Shown: positions 5,807 to 50,892 of the stretch, in pieces | How the letters are laid out: each line of letters starts with the position of its first letter | Numbering within the stretch: position 1 is the first letter of the stretch | Origin: a virus | Lineage: Duplodnaviria > Caudoviricetes | DNA: 56,475 nucleotides | Strand: one strand, 5' to 3' | Virus record (IMG/VR): IMGVR_UViG_3300029319_007564 | Span: 1 to 56,475 of that record | Notes under the pieces: generated by a model | What the model saw: only the letters and a program-made list of their open reading frames with translations | Told to the model about the DNA's origin: nothing | Databases searched by the model: none | Program-made: the position numbers and the translations under genes

Positions 5807-5815
5807 AAATCCTTC

Positions 5816-11846: not shown

Positions 11847-11856
11847 ATTTTTTCCT

Positions 11857-12408
11857 TTATTTAATTGCTTGTATGTTCAAACTCATTAGTTTGCCATTCT
11901 TTTTATCCATATGTGGAAGGTATGACTGACTGTAATCGTCAACATAAAAATGTTCGGTCTTCGACCAATCGTATCTCTCTACTTTTTCAAAACCTGTATT
12001 TAAAAGAGCTTCAGTAAGTGTGTCTTCACTCCAGGCATGATAATGAAAATCAAAGTCATATTTTTGGCCACCATAAAAAAGCGCCTGTACGGATTTAAAA
12101 TCATTTGTCATAAGATAGTACTCACACGCTGCCTTTATATCCGGTACCGCTAATCTTAATACACCACCTTTTTTTAGTGTGGCATACCAATTATCAAGAA
12201 CATCTTGCCAAGTTCTTTTTTGATATTCAAATGGTTTGGTTGGGAAATGCTCCAAAACGTGACACGCGTAAATTAAATCTACGTCCTTGAACTTTTGATT
12301 TATAAGAGTCACGTCACAAACAACATCAGGATTTGTATCTGATCTGGCATCAACATTTATAAATCCGTGCATCTTTCTATCGCCACACCCTAAATTTAAT
12401 TTTGTCAT
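11857..12408 (-). CDS. Class I SAM-dependent methyltransferase
   Basis: KLNLGCG, HVLEHF, LKKGGVLRLAVPD. Confidence 0.85.
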   Translation of the reverse strand: MTKLNLGCGDRKMHGFINVDARSDTNPDVVCDVTLINQKFKDVDLIYACHVLEHFPTKPFEYQKRTWQDVLDNWYATLKKGGVLRLAVPDIKAACEYYLMTNDFKSVQALFYGGQKYDFDFHYHAWSEDTLTEALLNTGFEKVERYDWSKTEHFYVDDYSQSYLPHMDKKNGKLMSLNIQAIK

Positions 12409-19460: not shown

Positions 19461-20416
19461 CCTAATTTCTCCATAATCGTATTCCAGAATACTCTTGCAT
19501 TGTATTTTTCTTTGTAAATGTTATATCCGTTTTGTGCAATATAACTTCTTTCTTCTGGGTTGTCGAGATAATAGTTTATTTTGTCTATTAAATCATTTTC
19601 GTCTTTAAACTCAACGTAGTGCTCGCCCGGTACCAGAAAGTTCTTAGTTGCCTCATTTGCTCTTTCAAGCAGGAGGGACTTTGTTGCTAAAATTTCCCAA
19701 ACTCTTCCTTTGCACTGGTCGTTACCTTCAGGACCTTCGGGAAAATTTAGATTAATCCTTGAATTTCTCATTAATTCTGCATACTTAATTGCTGGCAATC
19801 CTTCTTCTCTCTGGCCGCCACCAATGTTAACCTCGGTTCCGCTAGTTAATAAATGTGTCAAGTATCTTTGTCTCTCGGCATAGCGCGGGGATCCCAAAAA
19901 ACTAACATTAATCGTCCTTTCAGAATCTTCGACTGGATAGTACATTGTCTCATCTTGGGGCGCCCATAGCCAAATCAGATTATTATATTCCTGCAAGAGA
20001 TTCCTCTCTGAGCCCCAGCAAACATGTAAATCAGCAAAGCCTGCATCATTAAATTCTTCTATCTGCGGTATGCCCCAACCCTCAAACATGTCGGGCCACA
20101 TAAAAACTGTCTTACAGCCTTTGGACTTAATGTGCTCATAGCTGCTCTCTGTGGGATTTAAGTGAGATTTTCCCAGAAGAGAAAAGATAACAATATCTGG
20201 TTCAAGCCTATCAACAAGAATCGGCAAGAATCCATCTATGTGCTTCTTTTTGACTGCTGAATACTCATCCAAGTGTATGATACTAAACTTTGCATCCGGG
20301 AGAACTGTAGAGAATGTCTTGAATAAGTTGTGATAGTTATTTGTCAACCCTTTCGCTGGGTCTGCGTCACACCACTTCTCGGTTACAAATAGGACTTTTG
20401 GGTTATTTTTCTCCAT
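19457..20416 (-). CDS. GT-B glycosyltransferase (CgeB-like C-terminal domain)
   Basis: SRINLNF...RVWEILATKSLLL...PGEHYVEF...IAQNG. Confidence 0.8.
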   Translation of the reverse strand: MEKNNPKVLFVTEKWCDADPAKGLTNNYHNLFKTFSTVLPDAKFSIIHLDEYSAVKKKHIDGFLPILVDRLEPDIVIFSLLGKSHLNPTESSYEHIKSKGCKTVFMWPDMFEGWGIPQIEEFNDAGFADLHVCWGSERNLLQEYNNLIWLWAPQDETMYYPVEDSERTINVSFLGSPRYAERQRYLTHLLTSGTEVNIGGGQREEGLPAIKYAELMRNSRINLNFPEGPEGNDQCKGRVWEILATKSLLLERANEATKNFLVPGEHYVEFKDENDLIDKINYYLDNPEERSYIAQNGYNIYKEKYNARVFWNTIMEKLG

Positions 20417-20942
20417 AATAGTCTCCGTATTCTACAATAATTGTGCTTTTACCATCGGTTCTGTTGTATGCCTTGTAGTATGCAGGGAAAATATCTTCTG
20501 GCTCCTCACATCTAATAACCTCGGTGTTGCGCAACATTCCTCTAAAAACTTGTGTAAAATCGCCAGTGTGTTGTACTTGAGGATTTAAAGGTCGGACCGA
20601 GCCAATCCCAACACGAATGATTGCTTTCGGTACATATTCTCCGTGAGAAAATTCCTTCATTCTATCGAGATGGTTTACTAGTTGATTTACTGCACACAAA
20701 AGAAAGTTCCATCTCGGGTAGATGCTAACTGGTACTGTTCCATTAACTGCTAGTCCCGTGGTCATTCCCATTTGCATCTCTTCATCGACTGGCATTTCAA
20801 TCAACTTTTGTCGATCTACATCTGATAAAGTGTTGGTCATTGCTGTGCCCTTATAAGCAACGGCTTGGCCTATAAACAAGGTGTCTTGTTGTTCACCTAG
20901 GTAAGTCATTGCTCTTTTTAATTCGTCGAAATAAGCTCCCAT
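20403..20942 (-). CDS. TPP enzyme E1-beta-like pyrimidine-binding subunit (truncated)
   Basis: FIGQAV, IEMPVDEEMQMGMTTGLA, QHTGD; lacks the usual C-terminal domain. Confidence 0.8.
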   Translation of the reverse strand: MGAYFDELKRAMTYLGEQQDTLFIGQAVAYKGTAMTNTLSDVDRQKLIEMPVDEEMQMGMTTGLAVNGTVPVSIYPRWNFLLCAVNQLVNHLDRMKEFSHGEYVPKAIIRVGIGSVRPLNPQVQHTGDFTQVFRGMLRNTEVIRCEEPEDIFPAYYKAYNRTDGKSTIIVEYGDYYGEK

Positions 20943-20943
20943 T

Positions 20944-21573
20944 TTATTTTTCCTCTTTTTTGTTGTTATATCTACTCAAATATTTTTCATATAAATAAGA
21001 ATTTATATTGTTCTTTATGCCATCATTAACTGCGGCTAATCTGCGTGGAGACTGGTTTTTCTTTATTGATGGCGAGTGTCCAGATGAGCAGTATAATTTC
21101 ATAACCTGTTCTCTTAATTTAGTAAAATTTGTTTTCAAATCATGATTGATACCTATAAAATTTATAGCTTCTATGAAGGCATTATTGCTTGAGATCAAGT
21201 CCTCATAATAAAGCACCATTTTTGACGACTTTAAGCTTTCAAATTTATGTATTTGACTTGTGTATCCAAAAATGTCTAAGCCTTCAGGTCTTCCATCAAT
21301 CATATTAAAATCTATTTGCGTATCAGTATGTCGAGACGTGCTAGCTAAATCTTTATAATCTCTTAGTAGGAGAATGTGTTTTTTGAATTTTTTGTCCGAT
21401 TCTTCTGGAGTTATATTGGTAAAAAAATGATCATAGGAGGGCACATTGTGGCTAGCCCACAGATCTGAATATGTGTCGTTTTCACTAAATTTTTTTGTCA
21501 TTCCATATAGTCCGAGAGATAGTAAATGTAGTCCGCTACGAGGATGTGAGTATATGATTACATTATCTCTCAA
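20944..21573 (-). CDS. Sulfotransferase-like protein
   Basis: YSHPRSGLHLL, LLLRD, LYYEDL. Confidence 0.6.
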   Translation of the reverse strand: MRDNVIIYSHPRSGLHLLSLGLYGMTKKFSENDTYSDLWASHNVPSYDHFFTNITPEESDKKFKKHILLLRDYKDLASTSRHTDTQIDFNMIDGRPEGLDIFGYTSQIHKFESLKSSKMVLYYEDLISSNNAFIEAINFIGINHDLKTNFTKLREQVMKLYCSSGHSPSIKKNQSPRRLAAVNDGIKNNINSYLYEKYLSRYNNKKEEK

Positions 21574-22181
21574 AATTGTACTCTTTTTCCAGCACCAGCA
21601 TGCGGATATTTGTCTAGATTATATTTGTAATATGTGATGTATTCATCATTTACATCTTCATATGTAAGTTTTTCCATTGCCCAAGTTGCGCGGGTATCAG
21701 TGCATACTGACTTTCCGTTATCTTCAACAATGAAGTGAATTGGAAGTTTATGGTTTCTAGCATACTTGATGCACTCATGAGCCACGCCTGTTTCAGATGT
21801 CATCTCTCCCATAAAGCAATACACCTTGTTTTTGCCACCCTGGCGCTTAATATCCATTGCGATACCAGTTGCAATAGGCAGAACACCGGTAACGATACCA
21901 GATGAAAGTACTCGATACTTCGAAAAACAAAGAGAGATTGAGCGACCTTGCAAGATTGCTGATTTTAATTCTTCTGGTGGTACTCCCTTCAAAAGACACT
22001 GATAGTGGCTTCTCCAAGAACAAAGAACCCAATCTTCGGGCCCTATATTATTATCCTTAAATACTTTGATAATCTGTTCCTCGTTTCCGTGATAAAGGTG
22101 CACGGGAGCACGAATCATAGCTGCATCAAAGCAAGCAGCCATTTCAGTTTCAAATTCTATTAGTTGTTCTTTTGAAAGCAT
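21570..22181 (-). CDS. TPP enzyme E1-alpha-like subunit (truncated)
   Basis: APVHLYHGNEE, WRSHY, IVTGVLPIATG, degenerate TPP motif GEM...VEDN. Confidence 0.8.
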   Translation of the reverse strand: MLSKEQLIEFETEMAACFDAAMIRAPVHLYHGNEEQIIKVFKDNNIGPEDWVLCSWRSHYQCLLKGVPPEELKSAILQGRSISLCFSKYRVLSSGIVTGVLPIATGIAMDIKRQGGKNKVYCFMGEMTSETGVAHECIKYARNHKLPIHFIVEDNGKSVCTDTRATWAMEKLTYEDVNDEYITYYKYNLDKYPHAGAGKRVQF

Positions 22182-22192
22182 TTTATCTCCTA

Positions 22193-22411
22193 TTATATTT
22201 TAACCAAATCTTCCGGCATAAAGACCAACACATCTTTATGTTTGTTTCGATATACATTGTAATTTGTATGTTTCATATCTCCGCTATATAACAGATAAGT
22301 TTTCTCACTCAAAATAATACCTATTCCAGTATCTTTGGTCATAGAAAGATCATCAGCATATGATTCATACCAGCGAACCAAATCTCCAGAATTAAATTTT
22401 TTATTTTGCAT
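22193..22411 (-). CDS. Small G-D-L-V beta-barrel (SH3/KOW-like) family protein
   Basis: FNSGDLVRW...GIGIIL...YNVY...EDLVKI. Confidence 0.6.
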   Translation of the reverse strand: MQNKKFNSGDLVRWYESYADDLSMTKDTGIGIILSEKTYLLYSGDMKHTNYNVYRNKHKDVLVFMPEDLVKI

Positions 22412-23923
22412 TTAATCTCCTAAGATTTTTCTTTTTAGCTTAATCTTAGTCATGTCTTCGATACCCAAACGAGTTCTTTTGCCAAACTTGTCTTCTATCA
22501 TATCAAGATATTTTGGATTTTTATAGTATTTTAAAAATGCCTCGTCGCGAAATTTTAGAACTTCTGCTGCTGATATGTGTTTAGTCGGTAGAGGTGTTGT
22601 TTCATAAGAATGTTGTGAATATCCTACGTAAGTCTCTGGCAGCTGCCAATCTTCTTTCAGTGCGTCTAAATACAGTTTCGAGCCAGGATAAGCCATAGCA
22701 GAATAAAAGTTTGCAAATTCACAATTTAAATCAATAGACATATCTAAAGTGTCTTGCATACTATTATGGTCGTCTTCTGGAAGTCCAAAGATGTAGTTTC
22801 CAATTACGTTGATGTCATGATCTTGAATTTTCTTAACTAAATCTATAATATTTACTTCAGTAAATCGACCCTTTACAACGTCCTTGCGAACAACAGAGTT
22901 TCCAGATTCAATACCCAGCGCAAGCCAATTGACGCCTGCTTTTTTAAGAGTTTCTAAATACTCTTCTCTTACCGTATCAATTCTAGCATATGCCCAGATA
23001 TTGAAGTCATAACCTCTTTCGGTAATCAATTCACAAAGTTTCATAAAATGATTTTTATATAAAACAAACATTTCATCAGCTAATTTTACATTTCTTATTC
23101 CCATATTATGAAGTTGTTCAAACTCTTTAATAATATATTCAGGATCCCAATATCTGAATTTGTTTCGTCCGTAATCCCAGTTTTCTAAATTGTTATTTCC
23201 AAATGGAGCATTGATACAGCAAAAACTACATTTGAATGGACAACCAAGACTTGTGTAAAGAGATGCAAAGGGCATCCTATCATCGTTATTGGTCATCGCG
23301 TGCCAATTAGCTGTACGATACTTACTCATCGGCAGTAAATCCCAGGCCATACCTGGAAGTTCTTCTGGTAGCTCTTCTTGCGAAATCAGCGGGGCTGGCT
23401 TCGTATAACATATGTTTCCATCTTCTCTATACCAAAGACCCGGAACATTAGCCAATTGACTTGTATCATCCATGTTTACTGTCAAAAGTCCGTTAATTGT
23501 ATGTGGCCCTTCGCCTTGACAAACAAAATCTGATTGTTCATCCTGCATTGTTCCGCGAGAAACAGCAGACGGGTGAAGACCAATTAAAACCGTCTTAAGG
23601 TGGCCGTAGCGCCCTTTTAACTCAGCAAGAAGGGCGTTGGTGCCAATCATATTTTGAGTGGAAGCAGAGGGCTGCTGGCCATAGATAACGATTGCTACCA
23701 ATCTTGGATTGTAATCATTGATTGTATCAGCCGATGCCATAGCGTTTAGACGTTCAGCTTCGCAATCTAAAATTCTAGCCGACCATCCATTTTTGCGTGC
23801 ATTGTTAGCTAGCAAAGCAGCCCAGATTGGCGGCTCGATAGCCGAATATGTTTTACTTAATTCTTGATAAATAATTGGTGCGCCGTTAGGATGCACAAAT
23901 AATACGTCTAATTGTTTGCTCAT
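22412..23923 (-). CDS. B12-binding radical SAM protein (class B methylase-like)
   Basis: GCPFKCSFC (CxxxCxxC), N-terminal cobalamin-binding-like domain, LGIESG. Start placed at ATG 23923. Confidence 0.88.
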   Translation of the reverse strand: MSKQLDVLFVHPNGAPIIYQELSKTYSAIEPPIWAALLANNARKNGWSARILDCEAERLNAMASADTINDYNPRLVAIVIYGQQPSASTQNMIGTNALLAELKGRYGHLKTVLIGLHPSAVSRGTMQDEQSDFVCQGEGPHTINGLLTVNMDDTSQLANVPGLWYREDGNICYTKPAPLISQEELPEELPGMAWDLLPMSKYRTANWHAMTNNDDRMPFASLYTSLGCPFKCSFCCINAPFGNNNLENWDYGRNKFRYWDPEYIIKEFEQLHNMGIRNVKLADEMFVLYKNHFMKLCELITERGYDFNIWAYARIDTVREEYLETLKKAGVNWLALGIESGNSVVRKDVVKGRFTEVNIIDLVKKIQDHDINVIGNYIFGLPEDDHNSMQDTLDMSIDLNCEFANFYSAMAYPGSKLYLDALKEDWQLPETYVGYSQHSYETTPLPTKHISAAEVLKFRDEAFLKYYKNPKYLDMIEDKFGKRTRLGIEDMTKIKLKRKILGD

Positions 23924-23927
23924 AACT

Positions 23928-24857
23928 TTAATAATTCGCATACCACGGCGATTCAATAATACTGTATGCCGTGATAAGCTGTCTAATTCCATCGTCTAGG
24001 TCGTATTTACACTCAAAGCCAGTATCATAAAACTTTTGACTACTAACTGTATAGTCACGAGTATCTGGATCTGTGGTAAACTCTGCTTTAATGATCTCCA
24101 GCGGAAGATGCTCTTGGATCTTTTGTGCTAGCTGAAGCTTATTCATGTTGAGTGAATCGTTGCCCATATTGTAGGTGTCGTTCTTTACAACATCCCAATT
24201 GTTAATAACCCACCTAAAGGCACGACAAACATCTTGAAGGTGCCCGTAGTTTCTCATAAACTCACACTCATAAAGAACCAAAACACGCTCTCTAAGCGCC
24301 TTGAGAACAAAATTGTTGACCAACAGGTCTGTCCTCATTCTAGAACCAGGACCAAATACAGTCGCCAACCTAAAGGTAACGTGATTTTCAACGTTTCTAT
24401 ATTCACGTTCGCCGGCTACCTTTGTTCTGCCATACAGAGATACGGGATTCAAAGGCGAATCCTCAGTGACCACGGAACCGTCAGCACTTGTTCCATATCC
24501 AGAGTTGGTGCAAGGATAGATAACCAATTGGTCAACTGATTTGTTTTTTGCAATCCAAGCATTTACTTCATGATTAATTTCGTGGGCTCCGCGGACATCT
24601 TTATCACACAAGGGAAACCCAACCAACGCGGCCAAAGGAATGATAATATCAGCCTTTGCAGTGTACTTTTTCAATAATCCTAAATCCCTAACATCTCCTT
24701 TCACAAAAGAAAAGTTAGGATTGTTTGTATATCTCAATAATGATGTTGGATCGTACATTAAATTATCATACGCAACAACTTTATGGCCGTCGTCTAGAAG
24801 GTATTGTATTAATTCGCTACCGATATAACCAGCACCGCCTGTAATTAAAATATTCAT
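23928..24857 (-). CDS. NAD-dependent epimerase/dehydratase
   Basis: ITGGAGYIG, YGRTK, FRLATVFG, RTDLLVN. ATGA-coupled start 24857. Confidence 0.9.
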   Translation of the reverse strand: MNILITGGAGYIGSELIQYLLDDGHKVVAYDNLMYDPTSLLRYTNNPNFSFVKGDVRDLGLLKKYTAKADIIIPLAALVGFPLCDKDVRGAHEINHEVNAWIAKNKSVDQLVIYPCTNSGYGTSADGSVVTEDSPLNPVSLYGRTKVAGEREYRNVENHVTFRLATVFGPGSRMRTDLLVNNFVLKALRERVLVLYECEFMRNYGHLQDVCRAFRWVINNWDVVKNDTYNMGNDSLNMNKLQLAQKIQEHLPLEIIKAEFTTDPDTRDYTVSSQKFYDTGFECKYDLDDGIRQLITAYSIIESPWYANY

Positions 24858-25565: not shown

Positions 25566-27212
25566 TTATGCCTCAATAAATTGTTTAAAATAATTTTCAT
25601 ATGTTTTGAAGTTTCTTTCTCCAAATACGTCTTTATATTTGAAAAATACTTCAGCCTCTTCTTTTCCTCTTTCAACTGCGTGCTCCGAGGAAGTTGATAG
25701 GCCGTCTGAGTTATAGTAATACAATCCCAGCGGTCTGTCAATCTTTTTAAATTTTGATCCTGCTTCTACCATTCTCAAAAACATCTCCCAATCTCCGGCA
25801 TATTTCATATTTTCATTAAAATATCCCACTTTTTTATGTACAGAAGTTCTCCACATTGGCATTGGTCCTGGTAAACATTTAATCATATTTTCCGCCGAGA
25901 ATTCATTTCTAGAATGTTCATATGTTCTGCCTCTTGAAGAGTTGTTTTCATAAGTTTCTAGAGCATTTGGAGTCTGGTAGCAATCAGAATACACCAGATC
26001 GACATCATCTGTAAAATATAAATGCTTCGCTAATGTCTCTATGTAATCTTTTGCGTGTGCATCGTCGACACATGTTTGTGCAAAATACTCTCCGGTTGCC
26101 ATCTGCAGTGCCATATTTTCTGTTTCCATAACGCTAGCTCTATAATCTAATTTTTTGTAAATTACATTGCTATGTTTTTCCATAAATTTTTCAATGTACT
26201 TATCTTCGTTTTGTGGAGAATTAGCATTTATTATTATCAATTCACAACAATCAAATACAGTTTGGTTTGATATGTCATCTAGGTAGCTTTCAATGTACTT
26301 TTCTGCATTGTAAATTGGACAAAAAATAGTTACTTTTGGCAACACAATTGGTTCTATATAGTCTACCTTTTTGTTGTCAATTAAATTTATCCATCGATTG
26401 ATGATTGTATTGTTGTTTTCTTTTATTTTCTGTAGAAGTGGTTCACCTTTTAATTTGAAATATTCTTCACTTGCTGCGCCAAGTAGATTATTTGTTACAA
26501 GCTTGCAACCAACTATTCTAGCTTCAATGGCCAGTCTGCTATATGATTCTAGCCACTGTGGGAAGAAAATTAAATGCTGTATCCTTGACATGTTTTCAAT
26601 ATATTCTGGAAACGGCGCTGGATTCAGATATTTGAAAGGTAATTTATTGTTATTGCAAAAATCTATCGCTGCCGGCATTCCCTTGTTTTTATTTTGAGAA
26701 TTTAGTATAGCAAATTCAACAGTCTTTTTGGTATTTAAGTTTTTTTCTAAAACTTGCAACTGTTCTGGGGTCCATATATTTCCAGCAGAATTAACTACAT
26801 TATCTAAAAGTAAATTCTTTTGTACAACCTCTGAATGTTTTTTGCTTTGACATATTACCGCTAATGCGTTTCTAAAGAAAGTTTGATTCTGTAACTGGCT
26901 CTCTGGAGCCAGAAAATTTTTATAAAGTGACGGGTTGTTAGATCTTATATATTTGTGATCGTGCTCAAATATGACATACGTTTTGTTTGCCAACTCTGTT
27001 TTTGACTCTTCAGACAAAAGGAAGAAATTAGCAACAATAAAAAAACAATCAGAATTATCTTTTATATACTCTGGTGTGACTGTTTGTGATTTTTTACGCT
27101 CAAATGAGTAACGATGCGATAATGAATCCATCAAAGCATCGTTACAAAATTCGGCTCCTCCTCTTATTTCTTCAATGAAATAATCGGAAATAAATATTAC
27201 TTTATCATTCAT
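25566..27212 (-). CDS. Two-domain glycosyltransferase (GT-B-like N-terminus plus GT2 C-terminus)
   Basis: GGAE and ESYSRLAIEARIVGC in the N-half; KVTIFCPIYNAEKYI, CVDD and AGDWEMFLR in the C-half. Confidence 0.85.
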   Translation of the reverse strand: MNDKVIFISDYFIEEIRGGAEFCNDALMDSLSHRYSFERKKSQTVTPEYIKDNSDCFFIVANFFLLSEESKTELANKTYVIFEHDHKYIRSNNPSLYKNFLAPESQLQNQTFFRNALAVICQSKKHSEVVQKNLLLDNVVNSAGNIWTPEQLQVLEKNLNTKKTVEFAILNSQNKNKGMPAAIDFCNNNKLPFKYLNPAPFPEYIENMSRIQHLIFFPQWLESYSRLAIEARIVGCKLVTNNLLGAASEEYFKLKGEPLLQKIKENNNTIINRWINLIDNKKVDYIEPIVLPKVTIFCPIYNAEKYIESYLDDISNQTVFDCCELIIINANSPQNEDKYIEKFMEKHSNVIYKKLDYRASVMETENMALQMATGEYFAQTCVDDAHAKDYIETLAKHLYFTDDVDLVYSDCYQTPNALETYENNSSRGRTYEHSRNEFSAENMIKCLPGPMPMWRTSVHKKVGYFNENMKYAGDWEMFLRMVEAGSKFKKIDRPLGLYYYNSDGLSTSSEHAVERGKEEAEVFFKYKDVFGERNFKTYENYFKQFIEA

Positions 27213-28467
27213 ATTCTACGACTTGATCTAAAAGCCCGCGCCATTCCTTTTCTTCTTCTGTTTCAATAAACTCCAAAACAGGTGCTACCATTTCAGCGTA
27301 TTGTTTTTCTTCATTGAATCTTTCTTGTACTTCATTTGCAAAATTACAAGCATCGCAAGCTATACTTCCTTCTACTTTGTTGAACAAATCATCATAGCAT
27401 TGACGCATTTTTTGTTTTGCTGACTGTTCTCTTGGGTACGCCCACATAGATTCTTTAATCAATACACCTTCCCAAACAACCTGATCCGGGACATGATTCA
27501 AATCAAAAGCAACATTATAAAATCTATCATTTGCAGACTCATCAACTAAAAAGTCTAACTGACCCGACCAGCCGGTTGCTACAACCGGTAGGCCACTATA
27601 TGCTGATTCAAAAAGCGGCAATCCAAAACCTTCACCGTGTGCCAAGTGAACTAATGCGGAAATTTTATCATGAGTGTACATTGAGTGCATTTCCTCATCA
27701 TCCATATCTCCGTGGAGAAGGTAAACTTTGCATTTTCTGTCCGGATATTGATCTAGGAGTTCTTTAAGTTGTCCTTGGACCCTGACTCTGTCAATAAGAC
27801 AGTTTTTTGCCAAATTAGTTTTAACGACTAAGCCTACCTCATCATCCATAAATTCTTCAACAAACCACTTAACTGTGTTTGGAACATTCTTTCGTGGGCC
27901 CCATTGTGAAACACAAAGAAAGTTAATATCAAAATCAAGCTCAAGATCTAAGCTTGGTAAGTTTTCAAACTTTTTAGCCGGGTAGTTCACAGTTACAATT
28001 GGAGTTTGCAACTGCAGTTGTAATGTCTGCCCTGTTTCATTGTGAACTGCTTGATATACAGTATCTTGAAATACATTTTTTGCGTGATTAGAAACAACAA
28101 TTATCTTGTTTACTTCGTGTGATTTTTCTATCCACTGGTGTGCGACTTTGGTTGTTTCAATTCCTGCTGTATAACCTATATTGATTGGTGCAATTCTCTC
28201 CCATTCGTTTGGAATTGTCACCTGGAAAGATATATCAAATTGACCTCCCTGTTGGACATATGCAACAGTCTTTTCTATGCAATTGTCAATCCATTCTCTT
28301 TCAGGGCTGTCTGTGTTTATCCATGAGGTGGCGCCCCACGATAATGGTTGAATATAGATATCAAACAAATCTTCTCTAGAACGTAATGCTCTCAGGGCAA
28401 ATCTAGATTGTTCTCCATAACCAGATCTAGTTAAAACAGGAGCTTTAAAAATAAGTTTCTTTTTCAC
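27205..28467 (-). CDS. GT4-like glycosyltransferase
   Basis: SGYG, RKNV, GEGFGLPLFESAYSGLPV. GTGA-coupled start 28467. Confidence 0.88.
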   Translation of the reverse strand: MKKKLIFKAPVLTRSGYGEQSRFALRALRSREDLFDIYIQPLSWGATSWINTDSPEREWIDNCIEKTVAYVQQGGQFDISFQVTIPNEWERIAPINIGYTAGIETTKVAHQWIEKSHEVNKIIVVSNHAKNVFQDTVYQAVHNETGQTLQLQLQTPIVTVNYPAKKFENLPSLDLELDFDINFLCVSQWGPRKNVPNTVKWFVEEFMDDEVGLVVKTNLAKNCLIDRVRVQGQLKELLDQYPDRKCKVYLLHGDMDDEEMHSMYTHDKISALVHLAHGEGFGLPLFESAYSGLPVVATGWSGQLDFLVDESANDRFYNVAFDLNHVPDQVVWEGVLIKESMWAYPREQSAKQKMRQCYDDLFNKVEGSIACDACNFANEVQERFNEEKQYAEMVAPVLEFIETEEEKEWRGLLDQVVEYE

Positions 28468-29747
28468 GCTACCTCCATCAAGTGCCAGCGTTGGTGGCCC
28501 TTTCTTGTCTCCCAAGAGCCGTGTTTCTCAATTATACTATCCATCAATTCAACCCATCTTTTCTCGTACTTTTCAAAATTATAATTTTTAGTTACGTGTT
28601 GTATTCCCATTTCAGACATTTTCTTGTACTTTGCAGGGCTCAATTTTATTGCTTTTTTCAAGGTGCTGATAAAGTCTTCTTTAGAGACTCTATCCTCATA
28701 AATATAGGGCACCTGCAGGGAACCTATAACAGCTTTTGAAGCCGGCTGAATACCCCATCCAAACCAATTTTTTCCATCGGTCACTTGTTCTTGTAAGCCC
28801 CCTGTCATATTTACAATAATTGGGCTACCACAGGAAAGAGACTCAAGTGTTCCAAGACCAAATCCTTCTGCATCTGCTATATTTATTGTAAAATCTGCGG
28901 CATTATACATTACTGCTAAATCTTCGGGACTTACTTTATTGGTTGAAAGTAAAACTTGCCCATCACCAACATTTAAATGATTTATTAGATGTGGTAAGTC
29001 TTGGCCGTGTGGATCTTGAGCATCCGTGTGCATTAAAAGTACTGCTTGATCATGACCAACTTCATCTAAAAATTCTTTGAACCACCATATTAAAGTTCCA
29101 CTTTGTTTTCTTCTAGCATTTCTATTATTCCAGAAGAAAATCTTTTTGTTCGGATTTTTTAGATTGACTGTGGAATCTAAGATTTTTTGTTTTACTTCCT
29201 TTACTTTCGCTAATTGTTCACCGGTTTTCATTTTATAAAAAATGTTATCATTTACCGCATGCGGAAGATAAGTGCTGTTAACTTCTGGTGCTACAGTTTG
29301 TACAATTTCGTGAGTTACTTTTGAAATGCAAACAACTTCATCATTTGAATTATAGTATTGCGCATTAAAATAAGGCGCAGGGAAGTTATCCCACACGTGA
29401 TAATAAACCATAGGAACATTATTTCTAACTTCGTTTTCTATTTCCCACAACCAAGTATAAAACCGTGGATCAGTCATAAACCAAAGCATGTCAGGTTTTT
29501 CCTTAGCCAATACAGATCTAATTATTTCGTGGGTTCCATATCCATCTACTGGATAGATAACCCAATCTTCCTCGTACGGCTGAATTCTTTGTGGGGTGTA
29601 GTCTTCGTGTTTTATTGCGCCACCTAGGCATATAAACTGATATCTCCCTGTTCTTAGTAGAGATTCTATCATATACTTTGTTTGTGTGCCTACCCCAGAT
29701 GGCGAAAGGGGATGGTCAGATAATACTAATATCTTCTTTTTCTTCAT
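28464..29747 (-). CDS. GT4-like glycosyltransferase
   Basis: SGVG, RNARRK, AEGFGLGTLESLSCG. Confidence 0.88.
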   Translation of the reverse strand: MKKKKILVLSDHPLSPSGVGTQTKYMIESLLRTGRYQFICLGGAIKHEDYTPQRIQPYEEDWVIYPVDGYGTHEIIRSVLAKEKPDMLWFMTDPRFYTWLWEIENEVRNNVPMVYYHVWDNFPAPYFNAQYYNSNDEVVCISKVTHEIVQTVAPEVNSTYLPHAVNDNIFYKMKTGEQLAKVKEVKQKILDSTVNLKNPNKKIFFWNNRNARRKQSGTLIWWFKEFLDEVGHDQAVLLMHTDAQDPHGQDLPHLINHLNVGDGQVLLSTNKVSPEDLAVMYNAADFTINIADAEGFGLGTLESLSCGSPIIVNMTGGLQEQVTDGKNWFGWGIQPASKAVIGSLQVPYIYEDRVSKEDFISTLKKAIKLSPAKYKKMSEMGIQHVTKNYNFEKYEKRWVELMDSIIEKHGSWETRKGHQRWHLMEVA

Positions 29748-33337: not shown

Positions 33338-33414
33338 TGGCTGGGGCGGTTGGACTCGAACCAACAACGGCCGGGGTAACAACCCGGTGCACCTGCCTGT
33401 GGCACTTCACCCCA
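33338..33414 (-). tRNA. tRNA-Asn (GTT), CCA encoded
   Basis: Acceptor TGGGGTG/CGCCCCA + G + CCA; anticodon arm CCGGG-TTGTTAC-CCCGG; T arm GTTGG-TTCGAGT-CCAAC. Confidence 0.9.
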
Positions 33415-36946: not shown

Positions 36947-37296
36947 TGGTGGAGGCGGCGGGAGTCGAACCCGCGTCCGTAACATATCCATAGTTAAGTC
37001 ATTCACAAGCTTATTCAGATTACTATCACAATCTGACAAAGATAGATGGAAAATAAGATATCACCCCCATCAAGCTGGTGATAAATGTTTGGTGGTTTTT
37101 AGATACCGCTTACCACCCTGTTGCAGTAAATACTCAAATTGGATAGAAGGCTTTGAGCGACCTCCCTACTAAGCGGCTAAGCGCTGTTCGAAGTGTAAGT
37201 TGTTATTTGCAACTAAAGTTTTTGAACTGTTAAGGTCGTATCTAACCTGCTTGCACTCGACTCTTTCAATGCCACGTCGAAGCCTAAATCACCCCC
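36947..37296 (-). ncRNA. ssrA: tmRNA; tag (A)ANNNLHFEQRLAA
   Basis: 5' GGGGGTG pairs with 3' CGCCTCC-ACCA including G3.U70; T arm GCGGGTTCGACTCCCGC; tag ORF 37210-37169 ending LAA-TAG-TAG. Confidence 0.95.
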
Positions 37297-44884: not shown

Positions 44885-45571
44885 CTAGCATTTAATCTTC
44901 TGGATGTCATACTGGCCATCATTATTGATAACTTTGTTTATGACCAATTCAAAATCTAATGGTTTAACGTCATTTATTTCGGGATTATCGCAAACTTTTG
45001 CTAGCACGTCGTCAATATTTTTTTGAGAATCTTCATAATATTCAATACGATTAATGTTTGATTTTCCATCAGGCATAATTTTATTACTTAACATTTTTAC
45101 CATAACATCACCCTTCGATTCTCCGGCAGTTGCAATCGGTCTAATTTTAGATGAATCAATTCCTATTTCATCAAGGTAGTCTAAAATTGGCCCAAGAGAC
45201 TTACCCCTTCGAGCTGTTAAAATATAGGTTCTAGAGTTTTCTGAAAAGTTTCTTAGTACGTCAGTGACTAATTTAATCTCAAGAGGATTTTTTACAATAG
45301 AAAAGTCACTAAGGTCTATCTTGTATCCAGCATTAATTAATCCATCAACTGCGTCGAAAGCATCTATGCCTTCTTTTTCTGCAGCTGCGTTCATGTATTC
45401 TTCAAATTCTTTTTGATCTCGCAATGTGGCTGTCGAACCATCCGGCGCCGTGACACGTGTTTCTGATTCGGTATGTGCTATTGTTTCATCAAAATCAAAA
45501 ATACGCAGAGTAGTCACGGGCTCATAATTTTCCGCGATAAACTTTCGCCAATTTTCAAGTAGGAGTTTCAC
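44885..45571 (-). CDS. HAD-family phosphatase with MKLLLENWRKFIAE leader
   Basis: IFDFDETIAHT, ILTARR, K, YYEDS. Confidence 0.8.
   Translation of the reverse strand: MKLLLENWRKFIAENYEPVTTLRIFDFDETIAHTESETRVTAPDGSTATLRDQKEFEEYMNAAAEKEGIDAFDAVDGLINAGYKIDLSDFSIVKNPLEIKLVTDVLRNFSENSRTYILTARRGKSLGPILDYLDEIGIDSSKIRPIATAGESKGDVMVKMLSNKIMPDGKSNINRIEYYEDSQKNIDDVLAKVCDNPEINDVKPLDFELVINKVINNDGQYDIQKIKC
45545..45571 (-). repeat. 27-bp exact repeat copy 1 (encodes start-KLLLENWR)
   Basis: GTGAAACTCCTACTTGAAAATTGGCGA, identical to 46234-46260. Confidence 0.95.
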
Positions 45572-46260
45572 GCGCTAGCAATACCTTTTTCAAAACCCTT
45601 GAAAGGGTTTTTTAAATCACTTCTTAAATCAATCAAAGTTTGTAACCAGCCTTGAGATTCTGCTACATCCTTCAGCATTGATAAAATACCACTTGGATCT
45701 AATGCAGTAACAACTGTTTGAATTAATAGCTTTATTTTTTCTAGATTTTGTTGTACAAAGGCAGCAATTTTTGCTGCACTAGCAACTCCCCCAGACATGG
45801 TATCTAATATAGCTTTAGCTCCAAGTTCAACTAGTTTTTGCAAAACTATCGCTAATATCGCCGCACCAGCTTTTAAATATTTTGGACTTCTCAACACTCC
45901 AAAAGCTTGAACTATTTGCCTGGATCTATATTTTGGAAATAGCTTTAAAAGAATATTGTTTTTTGTTTTTACTGCAATTGTTCGCATGCTGGAAAAAAAG
46001 CTTTGTAATTTTTTTAGTGACGCGTCAACAAAGGACATCAACTGGTTATCCTTCCAATTGTTGAAACTTTGTATTTGTTTTTTTACTGAGTTGAAAGAAT
46101 TACTAAAAAACGATCCAATACTCTCATCAAGCAATCTCTGCTGCTCTTCTATTATGAGCATTTCAGTAACATAATTACCTGCCCAAATTTCTTCTACAAG
46201 ATTTTCGGCAGATCTCTGCTCGTTTAAATAATCTCGCCAATTTTCAAGTAGGAGTTTCAC
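45568..46260 (-). CDS. Helical/amphipathic protein with MKLLLENWRDYLNE leader
   Basis: Start revised to GTG 46260 (GTGA-coupled, repeat copy). Confidence 0.7.
   Translation of the reverse strand: MKLLLENWRDYLNEQRSAENLVEEIWAGNYVTEMLIIEEQQRLLDESIGSFFSNSFNSVKKQIQSFNNWKDNQLMSFVDASLKKLQSFFSSMRTIAVKTKNNILLKLFPKYRSRQIVQAFGVLRSPKYLKAGAAILAIVLQKLVELGAKAILDTMSGGVASAAKIAAFVQQNLEKIKLLIQTVVTALDPSGILSMLKDVAESQGWLQTLIDLRSDLKNPFKGFEKGIASA
46234..46260 (-). repeat. 27-bp exact repeat copy 2
   Basis: Identical to 45545-45571. Confidence 0.95.
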
Positions 46261-46610
46261 ATCTCTTTCCAATATTTTATCCAGGCATATGCCTTTCTTT
46301 CATTTAAGTAGTTTTCTTTTTCGTCGTTATCATATGCCTCAAGCTCAAAAGGATTAACATAATATGCCTCTTTACCTCCGAGTCCCGACAATAAACCGTT
46401 TAAATGAAAATAAGCATACATAATCCATTGAAAAATAAACAACATTTCAACTTGCTGTTTGTAGTGAATTGTTTCATGTCTTCTTACTCTTTCATCTAAT
46501 TCTCCTCGCGAGAAAACAAAAATAAAAAAACTTAGCGCATTTATTTCAATTGGAGCCAGCTTGGATAACCAAACTGGTATTTTGCTATTTTCAAAAAATA
46601 AAGGAAACAT
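46257..46610 (-). CDS. Small HExxH metallopeptidase-like protein
   Basis: RRHETIHYKQQ...NPFELEAY. Confidence 0.7.
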   Translation of the reverse strand: MFPLFFENSKIPVWLSKLAPIEINALSFFIFVFSRGELDERVRRHETIHYKQQVEMLFIFQWIMYAYFHLNGLLSGLGGKEAYYVNPFELEAYDNDEKENYLNERKAYAWIKYWKEM

Positions 46611-46852
46611 TATTTAACTTCCTCTACTGATTTATCCATTTCATTATCAAAATCAGATCTAATCCAAACCATTGAATTGAATTGTGCTCTTTTTCTTTCC
46701 AACACTAAAGATCCTTGTGGTTTAACCAATTCTCCTTGTACCTCCACACTTTCAAAATCAATTTCAGTTTTTTGTTTATAAACAACGCGAGGCTCCTCCT
46801 CGTCGTTTGCATATGCAACACTCGATAGTAAAAATATTAAAATGTATCTCAC
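46610..46852 (-). CDS. cglF: CglF/GltF-like (adventurous gliding motility) secreted protein
   Basis: Signal peptide ending AYA, then VVYKQKTEIDFESVEVQGELVKPQGSLVLERKRAQFNSMVWIRSDFDNEMDKS, matching my recollection of the myxobacterial CglF pattern; AAGGAGG RBS. Confidence 0.75.
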   Translation of the reverse strand: MRYILIFLLSSVAYANDEEEPRVVYKQKTEIDFESVEVQGELVKPQGSLVLERKRAQFNSMVWIRSDFDNEMDKSVEEVK

Positions 46853-46971
46853 TCCGATTCCTCCTTTATTTGTACAGATTTTGCCTCTGCCGGCTTATCA
46901 TCCGGTAAATCCTTGGTACTTATAAAAGCAGCTAGGCTTAAGCAAGCAAATCCAATTATAATTAGTTCCAT
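46849..46971 (-). CDS. 40-aa membrane/signal-anchored peptide
   Basis: MELIIIGFACLSLAAFISTKDLPDDKPAEAKSVQIKEESE*; stop overlaps the cglF-like start. Confidence 0.55.
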   Translation of the reverse strand: MELIIIGFACLSLAAFISTKDLPDDKPAEAKSVQIKEESE

Positions 46972-47214
46972 TTAGTTATCATAGTTCCTGTCAATATCGT
47001 CTCTTACCATTGTAGTAGCTTTTAACATATCTTCCGAATTAACCTCTTTAAGTATTAAACTACCTGTTTTTGGTTCGTAATACATACCGATTAAATCACC
47101 TTTTGATATACTTTTCATCTCTTCTTCGGTTAATGTAATTTTTCCGCCATTCTTTTTTACTAACATTGTAATGATGCTAAAAAGATATTCTGGGTCTTTT
47201 AGGTATTTGCTCAT
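46972..47214 (-). CDS. Hypothetical protein
   Basis: ATGA-coupled start 47214. Confidence 0.65.
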   Translation of the reverse strand: MSKYLKDPEYLFSIITMLVKKNGGKITLTEEEMKSISKGDLIGMYYEPKTGSLILKEVNSEDMLKATTMVRDDIDRNYDN

Positions 47215-49763
47215 GAGTTTAAAAATCCTTTCCACGTTTTTACGAGGTTTTCGTTTGTTTGCATAAATGATGGCTGGCGAGAATTAACAAACTGAGCTAA
47301 TACTCTATTAAATACCACCTTAAGGTTGTCTTCATCGTCCATTTCACCTTCTACAAGCTCTTGAAACAACTGAGCCATAATGTCAGGCTCGTCAGCATTA
47401 ATGGAAAATACAGCGGTATATCCAATCTCACCGCCTTTTTCAACTGTTACAGCATCCATAGATAAGTAGTATCGTGTATTTATTGCTTTTCTTGGCTCTT
47501 CTAAAAGTTGTTTTCTCAATTCAATTTTAAAGTCGCGAGAATCAACGATCTGCTTTAGTACCTCGATACCTAATCCTAAATCTTCCGGATCGTAGTAATG
47601 TGTATAACGTGCTGTAGACTCATACGACTCAGAGTATTGTCCATCAGTGTCGAGATCCCATTCATATGAGGTAAGTGCCCTGTCTTCGATGGACATGGCG
47701 AGTTCCATATATCTACCGCCTTCCATTTGCCCTTCGCGTTTGAAATAATCAGTGAGCACAGCTTCAAACTGATCTCTTCTGTCATCGATTATCACATCGA
47801 TGTTTTCAAGTGCTTCTCTGTATTCGTCTGGCATAGCCATATAACCGTTACCATAAATGTCAGGATGCTCAAAGTTAATTTTCATAGTTAAGTGTATTTC
47901 TTCACGAACACGACGTATAACAGGTGTATAGTTGTTGGAGTCTTCAAATATATCACCATATACCGCAATCACCTCATCGACTGAGTTCCAAACAACTTCT
48001 TCGTGGTTACCGGGCAGTCTTTTCCACTCATCAACCGGCCACTTAGCAATAAACGCTGCGAAAGGTCTAATATAAGCGCTATCGGCACCATCATCTTGAA
48101 CTTCATAATCAGAATATGTTTGAGCCATTCTGTTATTGAACTCATTCATTATTTCTTCGCACTGTGCATTATATTGTGCAATGATATCGCCAACCAAATT
48201 AGCGTCTAATGCGTCTTCTGTGTCGGTGTTTTGCTTCATTGAACCTTCGACATCTACACCGGGACCAACTAGTTGACGCACCAATTTGCGACGGCCCTCT
48301 TTACCAGAAGTATCTTCATATGATCCGCCAAACAACATAAATTTACTGAGATCAATCATTCCATCTTGTTTTGGCATATTTGCGATGACTTCTTCTTGGC
48401 TATTTCTTGCCCAATCAGTAACTCTATTAACTAAACCGGGAATATCCATACCATAAACACGCTTTTCAGGCATTCCAACGTCTTGTCCATCATCCCAGCG
48501 CTTCGGAGGCTCGTCACCTTCGTAATATCTAACATGACGGATGCGTGTGCGAGAAATTGGCTCAATATCGCCAGTAAATGGGCGTTTATCGTCAGCAAAT
48601 ATCTCACCTTCTTGTATTTCTTGCTCTGCGCTGTCTATATTACCCGTGTTAGTGGCGCTCAGAAGGTCTTCTGTCTCAACCACGTATGCTACCGCTCCGT
48701 GGCCCTGTGCCTCGGCTACAGCGCATTTATAGTACGATTGATAGGCATTTTGGCGACTAGCTGGAGAGTGACAAGAGGTAATCGTATCAAAATCACTCAT
48801 TCTGAGCACATCTATCGGATGTCGAGTAATGATAATGGAATATTTGTCATTATCGAGGTTATTTATCTCTTTTTTGATGAATCCGGCGTTCTTTTTCCAA
48901 TATTCACCGTATTCAGTGGCTAAATCGGTTAAATTGTAACCTGCTGGGCCTGCAACGCCCGGATTTACGACATATAAGTAAATTTGAGTGTTAATTCTCT
49001 GAAAATTCTCATATTCTTTCTCGTCAAGCGCTGCTTTGAGCATTTTTCCGGTAACTCGGTTTGGTGTCCTAACTGGTTCGCCATCTGCTAATTTATAGTT
49101 GATATTCGCCATATGTTTGTAGACTTTTTGGTATATTTCGTCTTTTCTTCGGCTTAAATCAGCTAATTTAGAGAAAAGTTTGCCGATTTTCATCTGAATC
49201 TTCTTTGTTTTCTTCTTTTCGGGCTGCCCACCCTGCATACCAATTAAAGTATCAAGTAAATCCTCGGCTGTACGTAGATCTCGCTCGGCATACACCATAC
49301 CTTTCTCCCAATCTACGTCATATTCTTGAGATCTGAAGAATTCTGAGAACTTTCCAAGATCTGAACTTGGATCAGTGGTCGGAAACGGTATAACAACGCG
49401 CATTTTGTTGCTAAAAAGGTCATTTAAGGGCAAATTTGCTGGATTTAGGTCATCCAACACGTCTTCAAGCACTCGCATCTCGTCTTCGGTGACTTCTCGG
49501 AGCACTTTTTCGTTAACAGGGACACAATTTGGCACCATCCGGCCACCTTTGTCCTTCATACCAACCTGTTTATAGCCATCCCAGCATTTTTCTACCAAAG
49601 GTTCGACTTCTTCGTTCTTTTTCTTGCTTTTTTTGACACAATTTGGGTATCTTTTCCCAAACATGGTCTTCATACCCTTTTTTTCATATCCAGGCCAACA
49701 CTTTTCTTGTAAAGTATCTAAAAGTGCCTCTGTTTTAGCTAAAATTTGCTCATCAGTGGCCAT
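47211..49763 (-). CDS. 850-aa protein with two N-terminal CW-x-GY...PNCV modules and a large acidic domain
   Basis: KCWPGYEKKGMKTMFGKRYPNCVK and KCWDGYKQVGMKDKGGRMVPNCVP; C-terminus TWKGFLNS. Confidence 0.75.
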   Translation of the reverse strand: MATDEQILAKTEALLDTLQEKCWPGYEKKGMKTMFGKRYPNCVKKSKKKNEEVEPLVEKCWDGYKQVGMKDKGGRMVPNCVPVNEKVLREVTEDEMRVLEDVLDDLNPANLPLNDLFSNKMRVVIPFPTTDPSSDLGKFSEFFRSQEYDVDWEKGMVYAERDLRTAEDLLDTLIGMQGGQPEKKKTKKIQMKIGKLFSKLADLSRRKDEIYQKVYKHMANINYKLADGEPVRTPNRVTGKMLKAALDEKEYENFQRINTQIYLYVVNPGVAGPAGYNLTDLATEYGEYWKKNAGFIKKEINNLDNDKYSIIITRHPIDVLRMSDFDTITSCHSPASRQNAYQSYYKCAVAEAQGHGAVAYVVETEDLLSATNTGNIDSAEQEIQEGEIFADDKRPFTGDIEPISRTRIRHVRYYEGDEPPKRWDDGQDVGMPEKRVYGMDIPGLVNRVTDWARNSQEEVIANMPKQDGMIDLSKFMLFGGSYEDTSGKEGRRKLVRQLVGPGVDVEGSMKQNTDTEDALDANLVGDIIAQYNAQCEEIMNEFNNRMAQTYSDYEVQDDGADSAYIRPFAAFIAKWPVDEWKRLPGNHEEVVWNSVDEVIAVYGDIFEDSNNYTPVIRRVREEIHLTMKINFEHPDIYGNGYMAMPDEYREALENIDVIIDDRRDQFEAVLTDYFKREGQMEGGRYMELAMSIEDRALTSYEWDLDTDGQYSESYESTARYTHYYDPEDLGLGIEVLKQIVDSRDFKIELRKQLLEEPRKAINTRYYLSMDAVTVEKGGEIGYTAVFSINADEPDIMAQLFQELVEGEMDDEDNLKVVFNRVLAQFVNSRQPSFMQTNENLVKTWKGFLNS

Positions 49764-49764
49764 T

Positions 49765-50892
49765 TCACTTTCCTTTGCGAGAATATTTACCTGAACATTT
49801 CCATTTTTGACGAGAAAGACATAATGGACTACTTCTGTCCTTACCAGAACAGTCTTTTCCGTGAGATTTCATATCTCCATACGATCTTGCGCAGTAAGAA
49901 TCACCTTTTGAGGTACCAGGAGAGATAGAATAACCTTTTGCGCCGTAAGAAACACATTTTCCTTTAACTCTGCGTGCATATTTCTTGCCTTTTGACGGTG
50001 TACATCCTTTTTTCTTCTTCTCATTAAGAGCATCTTCATCTTCAGTCAATCCATAGTATAAAGATTCTTCAAGATAAGCCTCAGTTTCTTCATAAGAGTA
50101 TAATTCAGCTAAATCTGCTACTATTTTGTTCTCTTCCTCGATTTGAACTGCTTCTTTTTTAGAGTTGCCCCAGTTTTTAGCTCCAACTTTACGGCATTTT
50201 ACAAGGGCACCGGAGGCGTATGCACTGGGCCAGACTTTATAACGTGATTTTACCTTGTGATAGCAGGCATCTTTTGAGCCTTTCTTTTCTGTCAGATATT
50301 CTTGAAGCTCTTTTTTAATGATAACTTTTAATTTTTCATTATTTTTGCCATAAGTTCGACATGGTTTTTGTCCGCAACCACAATTCATACCTTCGTTGAC
50401 TTCATTTTCTTCTTTTAAATCGTCATCTTCGGTGCTATCAAGAATTTTATCAATTCTTTCTGCCTGTCCTTTGTGCATTTTTGAAGCTCCGTGCAGTTCT
50501 TTAGATATTTTTTCAAGTTCTTTTTCGTCTTCTTTTGAGTGAGACTCTAAAAAAACTGCTTCAAGTTCTTCACGAACAATTTTTTCTAAATCCATTTGTA
50601 ATTCCTCATTTTTTTTAGATTTTCCTTTCTTTCCCCACGATTTTCCCTTGCCTCTTTCTTTGCAAGCGCCAGGTGTTGGCCTACAAGCGGGGTATTTTTT
50701 GCGACTTTCACCGGATCCGCGGCCGCAAGACTTGTAACCACCCTTTCCATCTGGCGCATTACAGTCAACCCAGCCTTTTTTTGAGCCTTTAGCTCCTTTT
50801 CTTCCGAACCAATCCCTTAGAGAAGACTCTTTGCTGGACTCAGTGCCGGCTTTTTTTCTTTTTTCATCAAGATTATCATATAAATCATTCAT
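49765..50892 (-). CDS. Modular protein of basic Cys-containing mini-domains separated by acidic linkers
   Basis: LRDWF..WVDC..KYPACRP; CGCGQKPC; DACYHKVKSRYKVWPSAYASGALVKCR; KGDSYCARS. Confidence 0.75.
   Translation of the reverse strand: MNDLYDNLDEKRKKAGTESSKESSLRDWFGRKGAKGSKKGWVDCNAPDGKGGYKSCGRGSGESRKKYPACRPTPGACKERGKGKSWGKKGKSKKNEELQMDLEKIVREELEAVFLESHSKEDEKELEKISKELHGASKMHKGQAERIDKILDSTEDDDLKEENEVNEGMNCGCGQKPCRTYGKNNEKLKVIIKKELQEYLTEKKGSKDACYHKVKSRYKVWPSAYASGALVKCRKVGAKNWGNSKKEAVQIEEENKIVADLAELYSYEETEAYLEESLYYGLTEDEDALNEKKKKGCTPSKGKKYARRVKGKCVSYGAKGYSISPGTSKGDSYCARSYGDMKSHGKDCSGKDRSSPLCLSRQKWKCSGKYSRKGK

Follow-up and report, generated by a model that had tools for sequence, protein, structure and literature searches.

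A gltF-like gene and the phage that carries it

The window analyzed here is the whole 56,475-nucleotide (nt) DNA of the IMG/VR virus record IMGVR_UViG_3300029319_007564, in which all genes share a single orientation (G+C content (GC) 0.35–0.43). Our subject is one small gene in it, whose product of 80 amino acids (aa) resembles GltF, a protein of Myxococcus xanthus gliding that is also called CglF (PMC4488436). The gene, the segments of its product considered below and the elements directly upstream are as follows.

46610..46852, minus strand: gltF/cglF-like gene, 80 aa, GTG start, TAA stop (open reading frame (ORF) list and match to the NCBIfam model NF033764)
46808..46852, minus strand: codons of the putative signal peptide, residues 1–15, ending A-Y-A (read off the sequence; no predictor used)
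46730..46783, minus strand: residues 24–41, the conserved Y-K-x-K-T-E-I-D-F-E...G-E segment, predicted to pair with GltG (complex model)
46613..46681, minus strand: residues 58–80, C-terminal helices, predicted to lie in a groove of GltC (monomer and complex models)
46860..46866, minus strand: Shine-Dalgarno sequence AAGGAGG, 7 nt upstream of the gltF GTG and within the 40-aa ORF (sequence)
46849..46971, minus strand: 40-aa ORF, one hydrophobic helix followed by an acidic tail (ORF list)

The N terminus of the 80-aa protein consists of a basic residue and a hydrophobic stretch that runs to A-Y-A, directly before N16. Alanines 13 and 15 are conserved across 119 aligned homologs (92–100% in the cellular sequences and in those of the syntenic phage family described below), and this arrangement fits a type I (Sec-type) signal peptide. 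The protein contains no cysteine and is therefore not a lipoprotein; it is probably exported by way of the Sec signal peptide. Downstream lie the motifs K28-T-E-I-D-F33, V38-x-G-E-L-x-K-P-x-G47, R53-K...F58-x-S60 and R65-x-x-F68-x-x-E71-x-x-K74-S75. The first-pass annotation had described a secreted 80-aa protein with such motifs, and we find the ORF, the signal peptide and every motif that it listed.

The kinship with CglF, which the same annotation had proposed, holds up in a search with a profile hidden Markov model (HMM). NF033764 (gliding_CglF, 88 positions) matches residues 15–78 through profile positions 24–87 with an expectation value (E) of 9.1e-15 and 54.5 bits, and a six-frame search of the whole record with this model gives E 1.4e-15. 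The match is significant, and the outcome that would have refuted the first-pass annotation, a lack of any such profile match, is thus not seen; the score falls short of the 90-bit NCBI equivalog cut-off. Among 201 sampled genomes from the phylum of the nearest cellular match, 151 have an NF033764 match and only 3 exceed 90 bits, and the five nearest cellular genomes, in which the genes lie within glt clusters, score 51–59 bits; the cut-off thus marks the close kin of Myxococcus rather than the whole family. Six representatives of other GltF-carrying phage lineages score 43–56 bits, and 354 homologs are found in a set of 5.8 billion proteins. Pfam and PHROGs hold no family for the 80-aa protein, and tblastn with it against 50,697 cultured-phage records gives no match. 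Judged by its sequence, the protein is a phage-borne member of the GltF/CglF family, whose namesake is a small linker in the periplasm and belongs to the envelope-spanning Glt/Nfs-type machine of myxobacteria.

GltF of M. xanthus (MXAN_4868) is described as an 89-aa protein with a signal peptide and without a Pfam domain, necessary for gliding and recruited to focal adhesions; in a 2011 survey of 1180 genomes, it was confined to Myxococcales and Bdellovibrionales (PMC3169522). Contact between cells can transfer the CglF phenotype, and a type I signal sequence is described for the protein (PMC3824092). The statement of the first-pass annotation that CglF is needed for gliding and can be supplied between cells agrees with these two papers. 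The phage protein appears to be of the same kind, small (about 80–90 aa for the two), putatively exported by a type I signal peptide, lacking a Pfam domain and sharing the conserved core. It differs in that its gene stands alone in a T4-like phage, rather than between gltE and gltG, has a GC of 0.33 and belongs to a phage family in which L61M, N69D and D52E are fixed. NfsF, the GltF paralog of the Nfs spore-coat machine, is of the same protein family; NfsA–H are described in PMC4488436.

The record is rated 31% complete by CheckV. Its gene content includes PhoH, a NUDIX hydrolase, a large sugar-nucleotide/glycan cluster, a transfer RNA (tRNA) and a transfer-messenger RNA (tmRNA); no capsid or terminase gene was recognised in the window. 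Relatives of GltF occur at 55 viral loci, 29 of which (L077–L105) are syntenic with the window over many genes, and the records that contain two of them (L098 and L093) measure 195,690 and 203,368 bp and are rated 100% complete. Of 10 GltF-carrying records examined, 8 encode T4-type Gp23 and the other two are fragments 52% and 37% complete; terminase is present in 4 of 5. The closest cultured relatives of the capsid protein, in Microcystis phage Mel-JY01, Rhodothermus phage RM378 and the Flavobacterium “immuto” phages, are only 34–45% identical. Gene content and synteny identify the window as part of a T4-like phage genome of roughly 190 kb. Apart from gltF itself, neither the window nor the flanks of the 55 viral loci yielded any glt gene; at L106 there is a weak 27% match to a choice-of-anchor-D protein of the cellular cluster L005, described below.

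Of 400 pairs within the syntenic family, 214 are saturated at synonymous sites; across the remaining 186, the ratio of nonsynonymous to synonymous substitution rates (dN/dS) of gltF has a median of 0.066 and a maximum of 0.18. The gene is under strongly purifying selection in the phage, and the low dN/dS and phage-like GC of 0.33 together indicate an old, maintained phage gene. A record of low completeness without capsid or terminase might instead be cellular DNA miscalled as viral, or gltF might be a decaying passenger, but we give this next to no credence. Gene-for-gene synteny with 29 viral loci, including the complete 196- and 203-kb genomes with Gp23 and terminase, the orphan context of gltF, its base composition and its dN/dS rule out an artefact.

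A quick maximum-likelihood tree was computed from the 119 distinct sequences over 86 columns, with identical rows merged and three sequences left out (the fused forms L073 and L075, and L101, which is cut at a contig end). With so few columns, the tree is poorly resolved. It places the syntenic phage family in one clade (Shimodaira–Hasegawa-like approximate likelihood ratio test, 81) and the remaining viral sequences in about five groups. Almost all of the 73 cellular rows lie on one side of the tree, with the phage rows L110 and L115 nested among them, and gltF was possibly acquired by phages more than once. The viral loci span GC 0.33–0.57, which argues that several phage lineages carry the gene.

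The alignment contains 7 invariant and 17 nearly invariant positions. All of the invariant residues (Y25, F33, G40, L42, P45, F58 and R65) are kept in the window protein, which departs from only 2 of the 17, with serine for P60 and valine for I62. Column by column, variability among the phage copies correlates with that in cells, the Spearman coefficient being 0.36 when the syntenic family is considered and 0.76 for the remaining phage lineages. L61M separates the syntenic family from cells completely (100% versus 100%), and N69D and D52E also distinguish the two. In the subclade of the window, N-P-L-I-K-L has become N-S-M-V-W-I, with loss of P60, a proline that all cellular copies and all other phage lineages retain.

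Cellular relatives and predicted docking on GltG and GltC

A scan of one genome per species, covering 185,579 species, yields 75 cellular loci, at 47–71% identity by best segment. At 73 of them, other glt genes surround gltF when probed with the proteins of L005, with GltC, a long tetratricopeptide repeat (TPR) protein and GltE upstream, and GltG and CglE downstream. In L005 itself the order is an outer-membrane barrel (OMP_myx_plus, upstream of GltC), GltC, the TPR protein, GltE, GltF, GltG and CglE. Profile matches there are GltC (E 1e-73, a full-length ORF), GltE (E 5e-44), a GltF-like protein (51.7 bits), GltG (E 9e-103, with an AgmX/PglI C-terminal domain) and CglE (E 2e-29), and the L005 GltF is 67% identical to the phage protein by tblastn. 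The two exceptions without glt neighbors, L073 and L075, are 419- and 275-aa proteins in metagenome-assembled genomes (MAGs) that also have a normal gltF. In their N-terminal part, these two proteins show the GltF strand motif (T-E-I-D-F...G-E-L-V-K-P-Q-G) without the C-terminal helix.

The closest cellular copies are those of marine Myxococcota-type MAGs (L002–L007, for example “Deltaproteobacteria bacterium UBA796/UBA2957”), with 62–71% identity over 72–73 residues and with length, layout and HMM scores (51–59 bits) like those of the phage copy. They differ in that their gltF sits in a contiguous glt cluster of GC 0.52–0.64, and in that the phage family forms a separate clade that is not nested among them. 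The genomes with these closest copies measure 3.5–4.8 Mb, and GC is 0.52–0.72 across all 75 cellular loci. Many of the cellular records are titled Myxococcota or “Deltaproteobacteria”; several titles from bulk pipelines (Enterobacterales, Klebsiella) are plainly wrong, as the contigs concerned have GC 0.6–0.7 and contain glt clusters. The candidate-host clusters are contiguous, as is the nfs operon, and we term the machine Glt/Nfs-type for this reason.

In a published AlphaFold model of the M. xanthus proteins, GltF is mostly disordered, adds a strand to the TonB-like C-terminal domain of GltG and has its C-terminal helix lodged in a crevice of GltC, so that it bridges GltC, GltD and GltG (PMC11761067). 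The phage protein is predicted to share both this disordered chain with a C-terminal helix and the bridge between the GltG domain and GltC. Its monomer model is unstructured save for helices at residues 60–64 and 68–79 (predicted local distance difference test (pLDDT) 82–83; mean pLDDT 67.5). We modeled phage GltF residues 16–80, with the 119-row alignment, in complex with GltC residues 25–628 and the GltG C-terminal domain (residues 540–653) from the L005 MAG. The model scores 0.83 in each of three runs, compared with 0.00, 0.00 and 0.27 for the controls; the runs agree in at least 63% of contacts, with partner pLDDT of 51–65. When the method was calibrated, 58 of 80 solved complexes attained the mark, as did 2 of 110 mismatched pairs. 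The present job differs from that calibration in having its own alignments and three chains, and the tool counts such an outcome as support, not proof.

In the best run, residues 24–41 of the phage protein are predicted to contact GltG at 555–565, 576–592 and 636–652, and residues 58–80 to contact GltC at 263–416, 488–491 and 560–567, with expected errors of about 1 Å. The GltG-facing segment is without fixed structure in the monomer model and includes the invariant Y25, F33 and G40. The substitutions L61M and N69D and the N-S-M-V-W-I change of the window subclade all fall within the GltC-facing residues. A sequence search of solved structures turns up nothing related to GltF (best E 0.26) or to the GltG domain, so the docking result does not obviously come from model memory. 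Strand addition to TonB domains is itself a familiar binding mode among solved structures. The control that scores 0.27 has an unrelated protein in place of GltC and retains 85 confident contacts. Considered together, the models are consistent with phage GltF docking on GltG and GltC in the way the native protein is modeled to.

Purpose and host of the phage protein

We favor a model in which the phage-borne GltF bridges host GltG and GltC and keeps the machine coupled, in a host that is a marine Myxococcota member or belongs to another Glt-bearing lineage, and we put its probability at roughly one half. After synthesis in the infected cell and export by way of the Sec signal peptide, the protein, a largely unfolded chain, would bind two host parts at once. 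Residues 24–41 would extend the sheet in the TonB-like C-terminal domain of GltG, a protein of the inner membrane, and the helices of residues 58–80 would occupy the groove of the periplasmic TPR protein GltC, beneath the outer-membrane platform. By supplying this linker, the phage would control how the proton-driven motor side of the machine connects to its outer-membrane side. Since only the bridging subunit is kept and the interface positions are constrained, the simplest account is that the phage supplies a working linker. A well-preserved and probably exported copy of this kind suggests that the phage fits a component of its own into a host machine.

The likeliest purpose would be to keep the machine coupled after host gene expression stops, by a logic analogous to that of cyanophage psbA. 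Phages with psbA carry one subunit (D1) of a large host machine, photosystem II, and provide it while they infect; the likeness applies under this purpose only. The proteins and machines are unrelated, and the turnover of D1 is measured, whereas a short life of GltF is only expected.

The same predicted contacts would suit a competitor as well as a substitute. An excess of linker, or an altered one, could occupy GltG and GltC separately or lock them together, uncoupling the motor from the platform; gliding would stop, proton-motive force would be saved, or a Glt surface receptor would be masked against superinfection. The carriage of the bridging subunit and no other glt gene across 55 viral loci fits such jamming, as do L61M, N69D and the subclade loss of P60 within the predicted GltC interface. 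There is precedent for phages that switch off a motility machine in order to exclude others: the Pseudomonas phage proteins Tip and Aqs1 act on the pilus ATPase PilB. These resemble phage GltF, under the jamming account only, in acting on a host surface-motility machine; they differ in being unrelated cytoplasmic proteins directed at an ATPase, whereas phage GltF is a putatively periplasmic homolog of a machine subunit. Almost all positions under constraint in cells are, however, under equal constraint in the phages, which fits a working part at least as well, and we regard jamming as a possible but distinctly less probable explanation.

A more far-reaching version treats the phage linker as a control device that would reset GltG–GltC coupling, hide or expose the platform surface and block further adsorption. 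Because CglF activity passes between touching Myxococcus cells, the phage-made protein could also reach uninfected kin by contact transfer and change their motility or susceptibility. An entire clade of T4-like phages from aquatic habitats, deep-branching and with genomes of 185 to about 290 kb at GC 0.33–0.57, would then owe its specialisation on Glt-bearing Myxococcota to this single gene. We consider this combination improbable. Part of it, like the jamming account, goes back to the first-pass annotation, which proposed a phage that alters motility or blocks a Glt receptor (superinfection exclusion), possibly in neighboring cells too. That interpretation is partly supported: the observation and the homology behind it are confirmed, as is the standing of gltF as a genuine phage gene under selection; the mechanism is a prediction from models, and the host and, above all, the purpose are what we infer from these.

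The gltF homology suggests that the host is a marine Myxococcota member or of another Glt-bearing lineage. The reasoning is that the host would carry a Glt/Nfs-type machine and hence be one of the Myxococcota (or Bdellovibrionota), with gltF as its single line of argument. The Myxococcota/Bdellovibrionota host given in the first-pass annotation is reasonable to that extent; four independent attempts to link the phage to such a host, described in the next paragraph (Gmd, a DNA search and two scans of species genomes), gave nothing.

Several observations count against the favored model, the first of them concerning the host. Phage GC is 0.33–0.38, compared with 0.52–0.72 at all 75 cellular loci. 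The phage GDP-mannose 4,6-dehydratase (Gmd) has 45 cellular relatives, none titled Myxococcota; they come from Acidobacteriota and Bacteroidota (the best matches), and also from Marinimicrobia, Prochlorococcus and others. When 20 of the 56 kb were compared at the DNA level with 182 genomes from the candidate class (that of genome G008), 135 of the genomes gave a match. Apart from the contig L214, the matches listed are confined to the universal 3′ end of the tmRNA and, in G008, to gltF itself, and none is spacer-like. L214 is a 1,755-bp contig (GC 0.41) in a MAG of the Myxococcota class, bearing a tRNA-Gly and tmRNA pieces about 80% identical to those of the phage; it is probably DNA of a related phage that strayed into the Myxococcota bin, and we do not regard it as a link to the host. 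The phage tmRNA and those of four candidate-host MAGs have nothing but the universal 3′ end in common. A scan of the 185,579 species genomes for the family capsid protein found none, and one for the 850-aa protein family encoded near gltF found a single 3.4-kb contig, 34% identical, in an archaeal bin and none in a Myxococcota bin.

The remaining objections concern the bridge and its purpose. According to the authors of the published model, biochemical support is lacking for the periplasmic complex of native GltF too, which they call “only predicted” (PMC11761067). The docking score is the confidence of the model in its own prediction, and the docking partners come from a MAG and not from the true host, the GltF of that MAG being only 64–67% identical to the phage protein. 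The fixed L61M and N69D and the lost P60, at the predicted GltC interface, could reflect altered rather than equivalent binding. The contiguity of the cellular clusters, like that of nfs operons, means that gliding itself is not established for the candidate hosts, and the predicted contacts fit jamming the machine as well as sustaining it.

The distance in GC and the empty host searches would also fit a host without Glt, in which the strand segment binds another TonB- or TolA-type C-terminal domain and, for example, blocks TonB-dependent entry of rival phages, the homology being the trace of an old capture. Strand addition to TonB-like domains is general enough for this, and the control without GltC retains part of its score and contacts. 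The predicted GltC-binding helices, however, show the same degree of conservation in every phage lineage as in cells, and a binder of TonB domains only would be free to lose them. T4-like phages, moreover, often have far lower GC than their hosts, as T4 does relative to E. coli and cyanomyophages relative to Synechococcus. The 1180-genome survey of 2011, as noted above, reported gltF only from Myxococcales and Bdellovibrionales (PMC3169522). We therefore think a different target unlikely.

Should the favored model be right, the phages would carry a new sort of auxiliary gene, a structural subunit of a motility or trans-envelope motor, and gltF would provide a host lead for a widespread uncultured group of large T4-like phages from the sea. 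Hardly any viruses of marine Myxococcota are known. According to a 2026 preprint about myxophages linked by clustered regularly interspaced short palindromic repeats (CRISPR), few viruses were recovered for classes such as UBA796; its accessible part makes no mention of phage glt genes (10.64898/2026.09.14.751636). A search of the main texts in a limited literature collection found no published report of phage-borne glt genes. The phage copies may also serve as natural GltF variants that mark which residues matter for the proposed bridging role.

Neighboring genes and other features of the window

Upstream, gltF is coupled to the 40-aa ORF through a GTGA overlap, in which the TGA stop of the ORF shares bases with the GTG start of the 80-aa ORF; this coupling to a membrane peptide, also reported in the first-pass annotation, is real but a feature of only part of the phage family. 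Profile searches give no family match for the 40-aa ORF. Related peptides of 36–56 aa adjoin gltF via the same 4-base overlap in 14 of 30 rows of the syntenic family, and in four more (L083–L085 and L102) a nuclease-like gene is inserted between the membrane peptide and gltF. An ORF of this kind, presumably staphylococcal-nuclease-like from its Y-G-I-N/D-T-P-E motif, lies just upstream of gltF in L082–L085 and L102; the membrane peptide is not recognised in L082. Relatives of the peptide were not recognised in the 26 non-syntenic viral loci. The peptide is thus a frequent neighbor in part of this phage family and does not form a conserved two-gene module with gltF. Other membrane-protein ORFs precede gltF in L108, L111 and L121. 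In the viral contig of L124 (GC 0.56), an ORF at 5783–5984 on the plus strand, just upstream of gltF, resembles a Flp-type pilin, with a G-x-x-x-x-E-Y motif and then a hydrophobic helix.

Translational coupling to a membrane peptide in 14 of 30 rows, together with the membrane-protein ORFs before gltF in the three other loci, raises the idea of a helper in lysis or envelope remodeling, which would act late on the trans-envelope link, with the small membrane peptide, to separate or fuse membranes. We judge this very unlikely. No endolysin, holin or spanin was recognised next to gltF in the window, the protein lacks a lipobox cysteine and so is not an o-spanin, and the membrane peptide is not recognised in most lineages.

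Further features of the window are as follows.

46257-46610, minus strand: 117-aa ORF directly after gltF, with an H-E-T-I-H (HExxH) motif and hydrophobic segments
47211-49763, minus strand: 850-aa family-specific protein with two copies of a C-W-x-G-Y...P-N-C-V motif near the N terminus
36947-37296, minus strand: full tmRNA (Rfam RF00023, 109 bits; tag peptide ends L-A-A)
33338-33414, minus strand: tRNA-Asn
25566-29747: more glycosyltransferases
10677-23992, minus strand: sugar-nucleotide/glycan cluster, with an aminotransferase, Gmd, two further epimerase/dehydratases, sulfotransferase-like and UDP-glucose dehydrogenase-like proteins, a glycosyltransferase and a B12-binding radical SAM enzyme

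The ATG of the 117-codon ORF overlaps the gltF stop by one base. This HExxH ORF has no family match in profile searches and is seen only in L077, L078 and L083–L085. Within the 850-aa protein, the short N-terminal C-W-x-G-Y...P-N-C-V motif is common to small hypothetical proteins of cyanomyophages, and the rest is without a cultured relative. The T4-type late promoter TATAAATA has 9 matches in the window, compared with 5.6 expected, none of them near gltF; sigma-70-like sites are fewer than in shuffled sequences.

The stretch or parts of it occur in 20 run rows from 12 studies, 16 of them labeled marine or seawater metagenome, three under the coded name “organism A” and one without an organism label; the best-matching one may be the source sample. 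The sole RNA run with part of the stretch has assembled contigs over 48472–49800, inside the 850-aa gene and outside gltF. Downstream of the gltF block, the adjacent genes at 44885-45571 and 45568-46272, both on the minus strand, share an L-L-L-E-N-W-R leader, and some metagenome contigs skip the gene at 45570-46220.

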